Shown: positions 61-4,335 of the stretch, piece by piece
Layout of the letters: each line of letters begins with the position of its first letter
Position numbering within the stretch: position 1 is the stretch's first letter
IMG/VR virus record: IMGVR_UViG_3300011952_000033
Length of the DNA: 4,335 bases
Direction: 5' to 3' (one strand)
Source of the DNA: a virus
Taxonomy: Duplodnaviria > Heunggongvirae > Uroviricota > Caudoviricetes
Program-made: the position numbers and the translations under genes
The notes under the pieces: generated by a model
What the model was told of the DNA's origin: nothing
The model's database searches: none
Seen by the model: the letters and a program-made list of their open reading frames with translations, nothing else

Positions 61-1518
61 TTAGGAGCGCCAAAAAAAACCTGAAAACAATATAATAACA
101 GGATAAATTTCAAGGCGACCAAGAATCATAGCTATGCACATTAAACATTTTGCAATGTCATTAAGCACTCCGAATGACGATGCAGTAGCCCCAAAACCTA
201 ATCCCATATTATTAATACATGCAGCCACTGTTGCAAATGATGTAAGAAAATCATATCCCATACCATTTAACACCAGTATAAAAAACGCCGTGAAGAGAGT
301 ATAAAGAAAAAAGAAACTCCATACAGACCTCATTACACGATCTGTAACTATCTTCCCTCCTACATTTACACTCAACAACGCTCTGGGATGAGAAAGCTGA
401 TTTATCTCGTGTTTGCTTTGTTTGAAAAGTATAAGAAATCGAAGTGACTTAATTCCACCACAAGTTGAACCTATACATCCCCCAAAGAAACTTGACAACA
501 GCAAAAACACTATCGTGTGCGTGGGCCAACTTGCATAATCCTGCGTAGCTAAACCATTATCAGTGAGCATGGAGCTGGCAAGAAAAAACGAATGAATAAA
601 ACTTCCATGCAAGTCATACATACCTATATGCCAGACCTGGAAAGAGGTAACAATGATCACCCCTAAGGCTATTAACAGAAAGAAACGAAGTTCAATATCT
701 CTGATTAAAGGTTTTATCGTTTTCCTGCTAATAACAATATACCAAAGAGTGAAGTTGAAAGCCGATAGCAGGGAAAAAGAACCAGCCACCAGCTCAACCA
801 AATAGTTATTAAAATATCCGATACTCTCGCTATGAGTTGAGAAACCACCAAGCGAAACTGTGGAAATCCCGTGACAAATAGCATCAAACAAAGGCATTCC
901 TGCAAGTCTATAACAGACAATACAAGCAATACCTAATAAAGAATAAGTTATCCACAGTGTCCGTGACGTATCGGCCAGGCGGGGAGTGAGTTTGTCATCC
1001 TTAAATGGCCCCGGCATTTCTGACTGATAAAGCTTTGCACCACCAATACCCAATAATGGCAATACAGCAACCGCCAGAACAATAACTCCTAAACCACCTA
1101 TAAAATTTAACTGTGACCGATAGTACAAATATGCCCGAGGTAATGAACTAACATCATCAATTACAGTTGCTCCTGTTGTTGTTATTCCAGAAACCCCTTC
1201 AAACAGAGCATCAATGAACGTTAAATTAAGTTCTGAGTCAATCCATAAAGGGAATGCACTAATAACAGAAAACAAAATCCAAAACATTACAATTATAATA
1301 AACCCATCACGGGTACGTAATTGAATGCCAGATTTCTTAGTTGTATACCACGCTCCGCCACCAATGCAAAAAAATATAACGAAAGTTATAAAGAAAACGA
1401 ACAGGCTTTTTTCTTTATAAAACAATGCTACAACCATTGGTGGCAACATTGAAAGACTATAGAGCCAAACCAGGAACCCACACATATGAGTAACAACTCT
1501 TACATGAGATGTATTCAT
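61..1518 (-). CDS. trkG: Trk-system potassium uptake protein TrkG (TrkH/KtrB superfamily)
   Basis: Long ORF 61..1536 (track start is TTG). Translation is a polytopic membrane protein with four glycine-containing pore-loop segments typical of TrkH/KtrB (GITTTGATV, STVSLGGFS, LTDNGLATQ, NNMGLGFG). N-terminus from the ATG at 1516-1518 (MNTSHVRVVTHMCGF...) matches my recollection of E. coli Rac-prophage TrkG (485 aa). Alternative TTG start at 1534-1536 is preceded by AAGGTGG (plus 1543-1549). Confidence 0.9.
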   Translation of the reverse strand: MNTSHVRVVTHMCGFLVWLYSLSMLPPMVVALFYKEKSLFVFFITFVIFFCIGGGAWYTTKKSGIQLRTRDGFIIIVMFWILFSVISAFPLWIDSELNLTFIDALFEGVSGITTTGATVIDDVSSLPRAYLYYRSQLNFIGGLGVIVLAVAVLPLLGIGGAKLYQSEMPGPFKDDKLTPRLADTSRTLWITYSLLGIACIVCYRLAGMPLFDAICHGISTVSLGGFSTHSESIGYFNNYLVELVAGSFSLLSAFNFTLWYIVISRKTIKPLIRDIELRFFLLIALGVIIVTSFQVWHIGMYDLHGSFIHSFFLASSMLTDNGLATQDYASWPTHTIVFLLLSSFFGGCIGSTCGGIKSLRFLILFKQSKHEINQLSHPRALLSVNVGGKIVTDRVMRSVWSFFFLYTLFTAFFILVLNGMGYDFLTSFATVAACINNMGLGFGATASSFGVLNDIAKCLMCIAMILGRLEIYPVIILFSGFFWRS

Positions 1519-1655: not shown

Positions 1656-2120
1656 TTACTTTAAACACTGCTCGGTTATGTATTGCTGAGCACCTTCAAG
1701 TTGGGCCTGCATCATTACCAGTCGTTCCCGGAGGGTGAAATAATCCCGTTCAGCGGTGTCTGCCAGTCGGGGGGAGGCTGCATTATCCACGCCGGAGGCG
1801 GTGGTGGCTTCACGCACTGACTGACAGACTGCTTTGATGTGCAACCGACGACGACCAGCGGCAACATCATCACGCAGAGCATCATTTTCAGCTTTCGCAT
1901 TAGCTAACTCCTTCGTGTATTTTTCATCCAGTGCAGCAACATCACGCTGGCGCATCTGCATGTCAGTAATTGCCGCGTTCGCCAGCTTCAGTTCTCTGGC
2001 ATTTTTGTCGCGCTGGGCTTTGTAGGTAATGGCGTTATCACGGTAATGATTAACAGCCCATGACAGGCAGACGATGATGCAGATAACCAGAGCGGAGATA
2101 ATCGCGGTTACTCTGTTCAT
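1656..2120 (-). CDS. Rz: Rz i-spanin (inner-membrane spanin subunit)
   Basis: ORF 1656..2132 (track start is GTG). From the ATG at 2118-2120 the product ([55 protein letters not shown]...) is near-identical to lambda Rz as recalled: N-terminal TMD plus coiled-coil periplasmic domain. Start overlaps the R stop as ATGA. Stop TAA at 1656-1658. Confidence 0.9.
1715..1900 (-). CDS. Rz1: Rz1 o-spanin (outer-membrane lipoprotein spanin subunit), embedded in +1 frame of Rz
   Basis: 61-aa ORF wholly inside Rz in a different frame; ATG at 1898-1900. Signal peptide with lipobox ([20 protein letters not shown], then T at +2), proline-rich PPPPP segment. Near-identical to lambda Rz1 as recalled. Confidence 0.9.
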
Positions 2121-2614
2121 TGCTGACCCCACAAACAGATTTCACGCTCAATCTCACGACGAGTCATGAGACCTTTCCATTGCTTACCGCCAGCATATGT
2201 CCAGCGACGTAGCTGATCACATGCGCCTTTGATATCGCCCTGGTTTATTTTGCGAAGAAGCGTCGATGTTCTGAAATTGCCAGCGCCCACGTTGTAAACG
2301 AACGAGTAAAGAGCGCCGCGCGTTGTTTCCGGTATATCGACTTTGATGTACGGGTTAATTTGTCTGGCGACCGTGGCAAGGTCTTTATTCAAGAGTGTTT
2401 TGCATTCTGCTTTGGTATACGTTTTACCGAGCATGATGTCTTTTCCTGTATGCCCGTGACATACAGTCCATACACCAACAATATCTTTGTATGGTATGTA
2501 GCTGACACCTTCCAGACCATCGTTACCACTTGGGCCAGTGATTAACACTGATGCTATAGCAATTGCTCCGCCACCAATAGCAGCAGCAACGACTTTTCGT
2601 AATGATGGAGGCAT
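2117..2614 (-). CDS. R: SAR endolysin (phage-21 R-type lysozyme, GH24 family)
   Basis: 165-aa ORF, ATG at 2612-2614. N-terminal weakly hydrophobic Gly/Ala-rich signal-arrest-release segment ([20 protein letters not shown]) followed by a lysozyme domain ([25 protein letters not shown]...). Essentially matches phage 21 R as recalled. Start overlaps S stop (TAATG). Confidence 0.9.
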
Positions 2615-2829
2615 TATTCACCTCTCGCAGCCTTGCGCTTATCTTCTTTAATCTTGAAATAAAGGTTTGTCAGGTACGTCAGCAGGCCAAATACCAGACT
2701 ACCCAGCACACCGATTGCAGCCCACTGTGACGGAGTTACTCTATCGAGCAACTGTAAAAACCAGTAGCCGGCACTGCCTGCGGAGGTGCCGTAGGCAATG
2801 CCTGTTGAAATTTTGTCCATGGATTTCAT
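2614..2829 (-). CDS. S: Pinholin / antiholin, phage-21 S-type with dual start (71-aa form from Met1 at 2827-2829; 68-aa form from Met4 at 2818-2820)
   Basis: Track ORF 2614..2886 starts at an upstream GTG, but the ATG at 2827-2829 is preceded by GGAGGTGAGG (SD). From there the product is [71 protein letters not shown]: two TMDs and a charged C-terminus, matching phage 21 S (S71/S68 dual-start MKSM motif) as recalled. Stop TAA at 2614-2616. Confidence 0.9.
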
Positions 2830-2928
2830 AGCCTCACCTCCGCACGGAACGGATGGCATAGTTATTATGTGTAGGCTTTCAGACACATCAATCAGAGCCT
2901 TAATTGATATATATGCTGGAGACGATGC

Positions 2929-2955
2929 AATATAAAAAGCTCGCCGTAGCGAGCT
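2929..2955 (-). terminator. Rho-independent terminator between lipoprotein genes and holin
   Basis: On the minus strand: AGCTCGC-TACG-GCGAGCT (perfect 7-bp GC-rich stem, 4-nt loop; plus 2938-2955) immediately followed by TTTTATATT (plus 2929-2937). On the plus strand the hairpin is followed by an A-rich run, so it is oriented for minus-strand transcripts. Confidence 0.6.
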
Positions 2956-3080
2956 AATAAAATGTATTTCTCTGATATTATGTTTATTTGTATTAGCTCA
3001 GACTTGACATCACAGGTTTCGTATATAGAACATCATCAAATCTGTCAGTTTGCTATGAATGAGATATAGTAATTGAAGAG

Positions 3081-3476
3081 CTAACCTCGCATGTCAAAGC
3101 CAGATTTCTGAAAATCTCTGTAGACTTCCGGATTGTTGAAGGCCGGAAATTTGGCTTTATGAGCTGCGGACTTTATCGCTTCGCAATAGGCTTTATCACC
3201 GTTACTGGTAGATATTTTTAACGCCGTGCCATCCTGAGAGAATTCCATATGCAACCTGCATTTTTTCCCTTTCCAGTTATGCGGCTCATCAAGTTTGGCA
3301 TTAATTGCAGCTCTGATTCCCCGCGCTTGCGCCCCCCATTCATCCTGATCATCCCAGCGTCCTGAACTGCAACTACCTGTAGCAGTAGTTTTGTGGCAAT
3401 CTGAAGGGTGTAAAGGTGTGCATCCCGCAACAAAACCGACCCAAAAAGTCAACATAACGATTTTCTTTAATCCCAC
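3081..3476 (-). CDS. Putative outer-membrane lipoprotein with divergent TolA-C-terminal-domain-like region (paralog of the 3627-4055 gene)
   Basis: 131-aa ORF. GTG start at 3474-3476 preceded by GAGGAG at 6-nt spacing (plus 3484-3489). Signal peptide with lipobox MGLKKIVMLTFWVGFVAGC, T at +2. The C-terminal approx. 85 aa (GKKCRLHMEFSQDGTALKISTSNGDKAYCEAIKSAAHKAKFPAFNNPEVYRDFQ) share the motif skeleton and two conserved Cys with the neighbouring gene and with TolA domain III. Stop TAG at 3081-3083. Start codon choice (GTG vs internal ATG at M8) is uncertain. Confidence 0.75.
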   Translation of the reverse strand: MGLKKIVMLTFWVGFVAGCTPLHPSDCHKTTATGSCSSGRWDDQDEWGAQARGIRAAINAKLDEPHNWKGKKCRLHMEFSQDGTALKISTSNGDKAYCEAIKSAAHKAKFPAFNNPEVYRDFQKSGFDMRG

Positions 3477-3626
3477 TTCTTGCTCCTCAATCCATTAAAA
3501 TCTCAGCAATAGTAGTTGTTACGTCCGCCACTGGCTCAGAGCTGACTATCCGCTAAATTTAGCTCAGTGCCGTAGCTGTGTCAGAACAAACCTAAGCCGA
3601 AACCGTTTATTACAAAACAATAAATA

Positions 3627-4055
3627 TCAGGGTTTAAAATCCAGCACCCCATTTTGAAATACTTTATATACTTCCGGCGAAGGGGGGGCAGGTATATCAG
3701 CATTCTTTATCGCATTCATCGCTTCACGACATAAATCGAGGTCTCCACTTTCTCTTTTAACCTCCAGTAGAAGGCCATTCGGGGCCATATGCATTCTCAG
3801 TGTACACTCTTTTCCTGAATACTTACTCGCATCCCCGAACTGTTTTTCGATGGCGCTCTTGATTTGATGGGCATACAGACGGATATCCTCACTAACATCA
3901 GAAGTACGTTCAGATGAACTCACATACTGTGTCTCTATTGCTTTATCGGAGTAATATGATGTACGGTCATGATAATTTGTCGATACAGCATCAGTGCACC
4001 CGATAATAATCCCACTAATAATCAACGTAAGAATTGATGCGCTACGAAAACCCAT
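3627..4055 (-). CDS. Putative outer-membrane lipoprotein with TolA domain III-like C-terminal domain (TolA mimic)
   Basis: 142-aa ORF. ATG at 4053-4055 preceded by GAGGA (plus 4059-4063). Signal peptide with lipobox MGFRSASILTLIISGIIIGC, T at +2, then a Ser/Thr/Tyr-rich acidic linker. C-terminal approx. 83 aa (YAHQIKSAIEKQFGDASKYSGKECTLRMHMAPNGLLLEVKRESGDLDLCREAMNAIKNADIPAPPSPEVYKVFQNGVLDFKP) align without gaps to my recollection of E. coli TolA C-terminus (YAGQIKSAIESKFYDASSYAGKTCTLRIKLAPDGMLLDIKPEGGDPALCQAALAAAKLAKIPKPPSQAVYEVFKNAPLDFKP), roughly 60 percent identical by eye, both Cys conserved. Confidence 0.85.
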   Translation of the reverse strand: MGFRSASILTLIISGIIIGCTDAVSTNYHDRTSYYSDKAIETQYVSSSERTSDVSEDIRLYAHQIKSAIEKQFGDASKYSGKECTLRMHMAPNGLLLEVKRESGDLDLCREAMNAIKNADIPAPPSPEVYKVFQNGVLDFKP

Positions 4056-4084
4056 TTTTCCTCACATATGTCATATAGTAAAGG

Positions 4085-4114
4085 ATTATATATACCGTTG
4101 TTTTGGACGCTCAA
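4085..4114 (-). promoter_or_regulatory. Candidate sigma70 promoter for the lipoprotein pair
   Basis: Minus strand reads TTGAGC (plus 4109-4114), 18-nt spacer, TATAAT (plus 4085-4090); alternatively TATATA with a 16-nt spacer. It sits about 30 nt upstream of the lipoprotein ATG at 4055 in an AT-rich context. Sequence-only prediction. Confidence 0.4.
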
Positions 4115-4172
4115 ACAGCGAATCAGATCAAATAAAACGCACATTTGTTAACATTTACACAAAGTCTGCGTG

Positions 4173-4193
4173 GGATATTCTGAAAGAATATCC
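4173..4193. promoter_or_regulatory. Perfect 9-3-9 inverted repeat GGATATTCT-GAA-AGAATATCC, candidate operator or RNA hairpin
   Basis: Read directly from sequence at 4173-4193. No flanking U-tract on either strand, so not a canonical intrinsic terminator. Lies about 60-85 bp upstream of the candidate -35. Confidence 0.35.
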
Positions 4194-4335
4194 ATAATGT
4201 GGAGAGAATCTATTGAAGTGCATGGTGCCGGGTGCCTCCCGGTGCTCTGGCCGAACTGGCAAACTCCAGAGCGGTGACCTTTAGACTCCGAGCATCGCAC
4301 GATAGTTACGATGCCAGTTCTCCGCGTGCGCTAGC

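Follow-up and report, generated by a model that had tools for sequence, protein, structure and literature searches.

Gene content of the locus

We analysed a 4,335-nucleotide (nt) stretch of a Caudoviricetes genome (IMG/VR record IMGVR_UViG_3300011952_000033; the whole stretch is called the window below), in which two genes for TolA-domain lipoproteins, here named lipoA and lipoB, lie directly upstream of the holin gene S of a lambdoid, Rac/phage-21-like prophage. Every gene of the window is on the minus strand, in the order lipoA, lipoB, S, endolysin, Rz/Rz1 and trkG, and the Pfam and PGAP labels of these genes were concordant. The sequence was compared with about 200 related loci (numbered with the prefix L), and presence or absence on chromosomes was counted over 5,426 complete Escherichia coli genomes. 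The features of the region upstream of S are as follows.

4166 to 4335, minus strand: 3' part of a small RNA (sRNA) gene of the STnc100 family (Rfam RF02076), its 5' end cut by the window edge
4223 to 4244, minus strand: conserved 22-nt sRNA core, CACCGGGAGGCACCCGGCACCA; the left mosaic joint of the cassette coincides with it
4173 to 4193, minus strand: AU-rich hairpin at the position of the sRNA terminator, -9.5 kcal/mol, followed by CACGCAGACUUUG, without a U tract
4085 to 4114, minus strand: candidate sigma-70 promoter, TTGAGC (4114-4109), 18-nt spacer, TATAAT (4090-4085), 10 of 12 consensus positions
3627 to 4055, minus strand: lipoA, 142 amino acids; lipobox IIGC with cleavage IIIG/C at Cys20, then a flexible tether of about 35 residues that leads to a TolA C-terminal domain
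3081 to 3476, minus strand: lipoB, 131 amino acids; GTG start after GAGGAG, lipobox VAGC (FVAG/C) and a diverged TolA C-terminal domain
2929 to 2955, minus strand: intrinsic terminator, stem-loop AGCTCGC-TACG-GCGAGCT and then the T tract TTTTTATATT
2844 to 2867, minus strand: right mosaic joint, where homology to the holin modules of cassette-less phages starts

A composite cargo cassette upstream of the holin gene

Positions 4214-2868 of the window form a composite, moron-type cargo cassette in a hypervariable slot that has an STnc100-family sRNA gene on one side and the holin gene on the other; its anatomy, mosaic boundaries, terminator and domain identities are all evident from the comparisons. 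A set of 82 loci (80 from IMG/VR plus an E. coli chromosome and a phage genome) is at least 99 % identical to the window between 4244 and about 2613-2627. This shared region was found behind two unrelated upstream (Q-region) types, and the endolysin modules that follow it are of several kinds. On the left side, homology to the window begins at 4244 or 4243 throughout the set, with the exception of L074, where an IS1 element lies at 4097, and three unrelated 5' halves join at 4244: the type of E. coli JCKP02, that of phage mEp460_ev081 and the Pantoea-like type of the window itself. On the right side, the holin genes of genomes that have no lipoprotein genes (84-92 % identical) match the window only from 2867-2844 onward, and a direct comparison with one of them (L167) places the beginning of the alignment about 40 nt ahead of the S start codon.

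The slot between these joints is variable in both length and content. Over 128 copies of the sRNA core, the interval from core to S was 108 nt at its shortest, in an arrangement of core, terminator and S, and exceeded 2.8 kb at its longest. Other cargo found at this position included a NanS-p-type esterase, a DUF826 protein and another lipoprotein, several of which likewise end in a terminator shortly upstream of S. The lipoprotein genes are present or absent between the same flanks and carry a 3' terminator of their own, as in a moron, a concept reportedly introduced by Juhala and Hendrix in 2000. Natural insertions of IS1 and IS5 within the cassette are consistent with dispensable cargo, and a near-identical cassette was present in approximately 750-790 of the 5,426 E. 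coli genomes (about 14 %).

The cassette is nonetheless not a single unit. In L207, the upstream spacer and lipoA occur without lipoB, flanked by three STnc100 copies; lipoB with the terminator and lipoA with its upstream region occur apart elsewhere, and lipoB is found alone on plasmids. An earlier note on this DNA had described an autonomous promoter-to-terminator moron in the interval between Q and S. The moron picture holds broadly: both genes are dispensable cargo in the variable interval upstream of S, which in relatives lies downstream of Q, and the terminator stands; the promoter is only a consensus match (see below), insulation on the 5' side is doubtful, and the unit is composite.

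The terminator closing the cassette

The hairpin at 2955-2929 is a strong and clearly non-random intrinsic terminator. Its perfect 7-bp stem contains five GC pairs, encloses a UACG loop and is followed directly on the 3' side by UUUUUAUAUU, the architecture of a Rho-independent terminator. The hairpin free energy of -13 kcal/mol is well beyond that of shuffled sequences (z = -4.2), and a perfect 7-bp stem with at least five GC pairs followed by a T tract occurred in 0.7 % of 300 dinucleotide-shuffled windows. The sequence was unchanged in 75 of 80 related loci, and one stem variant still pairs through a G-U pair. The S start codon (2829) lies 99 nt past the end of the T tract, in agreement with the previous description of a strong terminator about 100 nt ahead of S. 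Because phages without the cassette match the window only from 2867-2844 onward, the terminator is outside the homology of the S module and is part of the cargo rather than of the lysis module.

Between this terminator and the holin start, a minus-strand sequence at 2864-2891 (TTGATG-N16-CATAAT) matches the promoter consensus at 9 of 12 positions; it would defeat the insulation if active, and is probably a chance match.

An STnc100-family sRNA gene at the 5' boundary

The earlier note implied that the late region starts at the upstream end of the window (4335), but neither a Q gene nor a late promoter was found in the window, and positions 4335-4166 belong to the sRNA gene and not to the end of Q. 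The window copy scored 30.9 bits against RF02076 (E 0.0022), under the gathering score of 47, as a copy truncated by the window edge, and the same locus in relatives reached 80-114 bits, including 86.6 bits in E. coli JCKP02 (L001) and 114 bits in phage mEp460_ev081 (L002). The window sRNA shares with STnc100 and its relative PasD the core, the overall structure and the place beside a holin-lysozyme operon (10.64898/2026.05.13.724894). A reading of 4335-4281 as the end of a Q gene was ruled out by the sRNA match, by the lack of a long open reading frame in the Pantoea and Mixta homologues and by the absence of this sequence from the 5,426 E. coli genomes. In relatives, a gene for a DUF1133 protein stands where Q is expected and stops 750-1,100 nt short of the sRNA, with transfer RNA (tRNA) genes and further terminators between them. 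This protein had no PDB sequence match to a solved antiterminator and is described here only as occupying the Q position. The possibility of an STnc100-like element in phage lambda between tR' and S was dropped, as Rfam found nothing there.

The 22-nt core CACCGGGAGGCACCCGGCACCA was detected in 128 copies across phage contigs of very diverse context (L085-L204). Because it coincides with mosaic joints, the core suggests itself as a recombination linker for cargo swaps, marking the joints at which genes upstream of the lysis module are exchanged. Some loci carry two or three copies of the core (three in L207).

The window itself illustrates such a joint. Its first 91 nt on the minus strand (4335-4245) had no match in the E. 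coli genomes, sensitive mode included; positions 4335-4223 are 97-99 % identical to DNA of Pantoea latae and Mixta mediterraneensis, in which no long open reading frame covers this sequence, and the remainder of the window is 99.8 % E. coli-like. The window is therefore a rare cross-genus recombinant, joined within the sRNA core, and the exact junction of Pantoea-type and E. coli-type sequence had no match among the viral contigs. The Pantoea/Mixta homologue of 4245-4335 lies in a prophage- or island-like region, with an integrase and a CI-type repressor nearby.

The sRNA copies associated with lipoA differ from ordinary STnc100 at their 3' ends. In most copies of the core, a GC-rich hairpin and a T run follow after 25-45 nt; the window copy lacks this 3' intrinsic terminator, having at that position the AU-rich hairpin 4193-4173, which is predicted to be non-terminating, and a terminator scan of the window predicted none from the sRNA core to 2955. 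The same terminator-less variant precedes lipoA throughout the classes of loci with 99 % and 91 % identity, and the copies upstream of lipoA in relatives retain the promoter-like region of canonical copies. The 66 % lipoA class has tRNA genes upstream and no sRNA. A terminator-less variant of a Pas sRNA is on record (10.64898/2026.05.13.724894), and STnc100 is known as a prophage sRNA that is expressed and RpoD-bound in Salmonella LT2 (PMC10794520). Insulation of the cassette at its 5' side is consequently not clear, as the upstream sRNA copy has no terminator of the usual kind.

TolA domains with predicted lipidation on phages and plasmids

Both lipoprotein genes proposed for the window were recovered as open reading frames with a lipobox. 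As read from the sequence, each protein has a basic N-terminal segment, followed by a hydrophobic stretch that ends in a lipobox (...GIIIGC in lipoA and ...GFVAGC in lipoB), and since the predicted lipidated cysteine is followed by threonine in both, the standard +2 rule predicts sorting to the outer membrane. The TolA C-terminal domain (PF06519, cut-off 25) was detected at 82.6 bits in lipoA and 54.6 bits in lipoB, and sequence matches to solved structures of E. coli TolA domain III (1S62, 1TOL; E 5e-28 for lipoA and 5e-9 for lipoB) settle the predicted fold. Identity to TolA residues 334-421, which constitute domain III, is 59 % for lipoA and 31 % for lipoB. The full-length TolA model NF007065 was not reached (107.8 and 53.7 bits versus 213), with matches confined to profile positions 293-386.

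These proteins resemble domain III of E. coli TolA (1S62, 1TOL, 3QDP) in fold family, in both cysteines and, for lipoA, in the beta-3 edge strand, where the C-terminal LDFKP sequence is retained. In TolA, g3p and colicin N bind to this strand and compete there with TolB (PMC4339652, PMC7391070). Unlike TolA, lipoA and lipoB have a lipoprotein signal peptide and a short, flexible tether in place of the inner-membrane anchor and the long helical domain II, and because those two parts are missing, the domain cannot transmit force from TolQR.

In PHROG, lipoA falls in family 5772, with function unassigned. In the RefSeq annotation of L001 (6358-6618 and 6790-7164), lipoA is a tolA pseudogene labelled incomplete, and lipoB begins at an internal ATG, so that its signal peptide loses the basic N-terminus; each of these calls seems to be an artefact that arises when genes are named by the TolA model.

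Homologues of lipoB with about 88 % protein identity were found on approximately 600 E. coli and Shigella plasmids, directly downstream of the relaxase gene on I-complex (IncK2/Z) conjugative plasmids and beside a relaxase remnant on pO157 (for example at 3965-4396 of L215 and 2789-3220 of L205). The identity extends over the full length, lipobox included. Unlike phage lipoB, the plasmid gene is solitary in the transfer region, and homology ends at the stop codon, so that the phage terminator is not shared. Homologues of lipoA at 66-91 % identity are intact. A third, more distant TolA-domain lipoprotein adjoins a thioredoxin-fold gene on Klebsiella IncFII plasmids (L216, 2812-3246; about 300 records). 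TolA domains with a predicted lipid anchor accordingly exist in three separate lineages, on phages and on conjugative plasmids.

Proposed expression and role of the cassette

Our best overall explanation, to which we assign a probability of roughly 0.6, is that the locus is a cargo cassette transcribed in the lysogen, that this transcription is stopped before S, and that the products act as decoys of the TolA tip. Transcripts of the lysogen would start at the candidate promoter 4114-4085, at the upstream sRNA promoter, or at both, pass through lipoA and lipoB and stop at 2955-2929, sparing the holin gene. In lambdoid late operons, the lysis genes need Q-dependent read-through; during lytic growth, RNA polymerase modified by Q far upstream would read through the terminators into S, R and Rz, and the presence of several terminators between Q and S in relatives is consistent with such a mechanism. 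Both the choice of promoter and expression in the lysogen are deductions from sequence. The candidate promoter lies 30 nt upstream of a GAGG ribosome-binding site, with a predicted start at 4079-4077, and a transcript from the sRNA promoter could run through both lipoprotein genes, because no terminator is predicted before 2955 and the promoter-like region of the sRNA is kept in relatives.

The proteins themselves would sit in the periplasm, anchored beneath the outer membrane, as copies of the TolA tip. There they would capture what TolA domain III binds, namely TolB (by its N-terminus), group A colicins (by their translocation domains) and filamentous phages (by g3p), and this binding would either shield the carrier cell or change its envelope. 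A tethered decoy appears the most likely role, judging by homology and by earlier work on the free domain; Levengood-Freyermuth and colleagues are said to have found in 1993 that free periplasmic TolA domain III causes tolerance to colicins and phage as well as leakiness.

Several observations weigh against this explanation. TTGAGC-N18-TATAAT is the sole site in the window with at least 10 of 12 consensus positions, yet shuffled windows contained a mean of 1.8 such sites, with at least one in 84 % of them, and when the 200 nt upstream of lipoA were shuffled, a site arose on the right strand in about 5 % of cases; its 18-nt spacer is also longer than optimal. The candidate promoter is therefore well placed but statistically marginal, and only plausible. 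Its -10 hexamer is TGTAAT in the 91 %-identical lipoA class (L206-L209), in which the key A at position 2 is gone, and the DNA upstream of lipoA in the 66 % class is unrelated to this region. No constraint on the promoter was apparent, but polymorphism among the 46 distinct cassette sequences was too sparse to be informative on selection at either the promoter or the terminator. The sigma-70 promoter proposed in the earlier note is the best match in the window and suitably positioned, but it hardly exceeds chance expectation. In composition, the cassette differs modestly from the S, R and Rz genes (GC fraction 0.41 versus 0.47-0.51). As to function, the decoy role rests on homology and on the older experiments with periplasmic domain III; neither protein matched a PADLOC defence model at E up to 0.1, and a literature search on TolA-like lipoproteins of phages and prophages found no functional study in the library covered.

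Two further sequence features touch on the start of transcription. In L074 (1-99), the IS1 end falls at the window equivalent of 4097/4098, between the -35 and -10 hexamers. The motif TTTGTGTAAATGT at 4151-4163 of the window recurs in L207 (about 3830-3842) after a terminator-less second STnc100 copy and just upstream of the third, and resembles the conserved TTAAAT region that precedes canonical STnc100 copies. The motif may be a relic of a further sRNA promoter and may provide an alternative start site for lipoA.

Among the other explanations, the one that survives best dispenses with a promoter of the cassette's own and makes lipoA-lipoB a 3' extension of the STnc100-like transcript, created by loss of the sRNA terminator. 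The sRNA would then be the 5' leader of a long transcript, structured and perhaps removed by processing, and the 2955 hairpin would end that transcript. The constant association of lipoA with terminator-less copies in the 99 % and 91 % classes, the canonical promoter-like sequence upstream of these copies, the lack of a predicted terminator between core and 2955, and the precedent among Pas sRNAs (10.64898/2026.05.13.724894) all favour this arrangement. The sRNA promoter of the window copy, however, lies outside the window, the copy itself scores under the Rfam threshold, about 110 nt of AT-rich untranslated RNA could trigger Rho termination, and the 66 % lipoA class is preceded by tRNA genes only. 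We regard this account as a serious but tentative competitor, less probable than the cargo cassette with decoy products set out above.

A role confined to the late phase of infection seems rather unlikely, and less likely than the sRNA extension. Under such a scheme, lipoA and lipoB would be accessory lysis genes, silent in the lysogen and made from the Q-antiterminated transcript, and the promoter match would have arisen by chance; TolA tips would flood the periplasm, uncouple Tol-Pal, weaken the outer membrane and aid lysis or vesicle release, and the terminator would be an extra barrier keeping S dependent on Q. The genes do lie directly upstream of S, on the same strand, in the late operon; the candidate promoter is marginal and unconserved; several terminators already separate Q from S in relatives; and overproduction of TolA domain III is reported as a means of rendering E. 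coli leaky (PMC6195910). Yet uninduced cells do express the sRNA family located upstream (PMC10794520, PMC12370729), which at this locus lacks a terminator ahead of lipoA, homologues of lipoB reside on conjugative plasmids, elements without a lysis function, and a dedicated strong terminator right after the cargo is what would be expected if transcription enters the cassette in the lysogen.

Finally, decaying and functionless remnants of a captured host tolA fragment with coincidental flanking signals, as the PGAP pseudogene label of lipoA and the insertion sequences in the cassette might indicate, are very improbable given two intact open reading frames with signal peptide, lipobox, both cysteines and full domain, the near-identical cassette in some 14 % of E. 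coli genomes, and the persistence of intact lipoA homologues (66-91 %) and plasmid lipoB homologues (88 %).

Relation to known systems

The layout is textbook for lambdoid prophages and adds little alone; the value of the locus lies in a common, uncharacterised cargo and in its link to a terminator-less sRNA. Known morons of the lambdoid Q-to-S interval include stx in 933W-type phages, nmpC in DLP12 and the nanS-p esterases. The present cassette resembles them as a set of optional genes between the same flanks, upstream of the holin gene, with an intrinsic terminator at its end and prophage sRNA neighbours; STnc100 itself adjoins stx2 in Stx phages (PMC12370729), and its relative PasD sits by holin-lysozyme operons (10.64898/2026.05.13.724894). 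It differs from them in its pair of TolA-domain lipoproteins, in a promoter that is putative, in a 5' boundary inside an sRNA gene instead of plain intergenic DNA, and in consisting of two separable units. Compared with ordinary STnc100, the copy adjoining lipoA has no 3' terminator, and in the window its 5' half is of the Pantoea/Mixta type. When cargo is inserted, an sRNA can lose its terminator and become fused to the genes that follow, which bears on the co-evolution of prophage sRNAs and morons.

With respect to function, the closest analogues are small lipoproteins of mobile elements that protect their carrier, the mode proposed here for lipoA and lipoB: T5 Llp, Cor of phi80 and N15, and TraT of F are outer-membrane lipoproteins that block the entry of competitors. 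No sequence relation to them was found, and unlike those proteins, which mask receptors in the outer membrane, lipoA and lipoB would mimic a periplasmic co-receptor. The filamentous phage If1, which uses TolA (PDB 2X9A), has I-type pili as its receptor. It is conceivable, although we hold it with low confidence, that lipid-anchored copies of the TolA tip represent an undescribed class of envelope protection by mobile elements against Ff, If1 and the group A colicins that grab TolA domain III or TolB, carried for this purpose by temperate phages and by pilus-making conjugative plasmids, and expressed at the present locus as a 3' extension of a terminator-less STnc100-type transcript.

Lysis module, trkG and minor sites

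The remaining features of the window are a complete lysis module, a potassium transporter gene and a weak promoter-like site.

3556 to 3584, minus strand: weak promoter-like site, CTGACA-N17-TAAATT, 9 of 12 consensus positions, in the lipoA-lipoB spacer
2614 to 2829, minus strand: holin S, phage-21-type, with dual-start motif MKSM (PF04971, 120.9 bits; PGAP name essD)
2117 to 2614, minus strand: endolysin with a hydrophobic N-terminus (PF00959, 154.8 bits; PGAP name RrrD)
1656 to 2120, minus strand: spanin Rz (PF03245, 178.9 bits, and PF06085, 69.5 bits, for the pair of Rz and Rz1)
1900 to 1715, minus strand: Rz1, embedded within Rz
61 to 1518, minus strand: trkG, potassium transporter (PF02386, 482.9 bits; PGAP name trkG)

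The site at 3556-3584 may be an internal promoter or a product of chance; in L051 (3507-4698), an IS5 element is inserted in the lipoA-lipoB spacer within this site (window 3549-3556). At the other flank of the lysis cassette, trkG represents a second cargo gene, with a GC fraction of 0.38 and separated from Rz by a very AT-rich spacer of 119 nt (GC 0.27). Its position beside Rz and the lysis genes is the arrangement known from the Rac prophage and Rac-type prophages.

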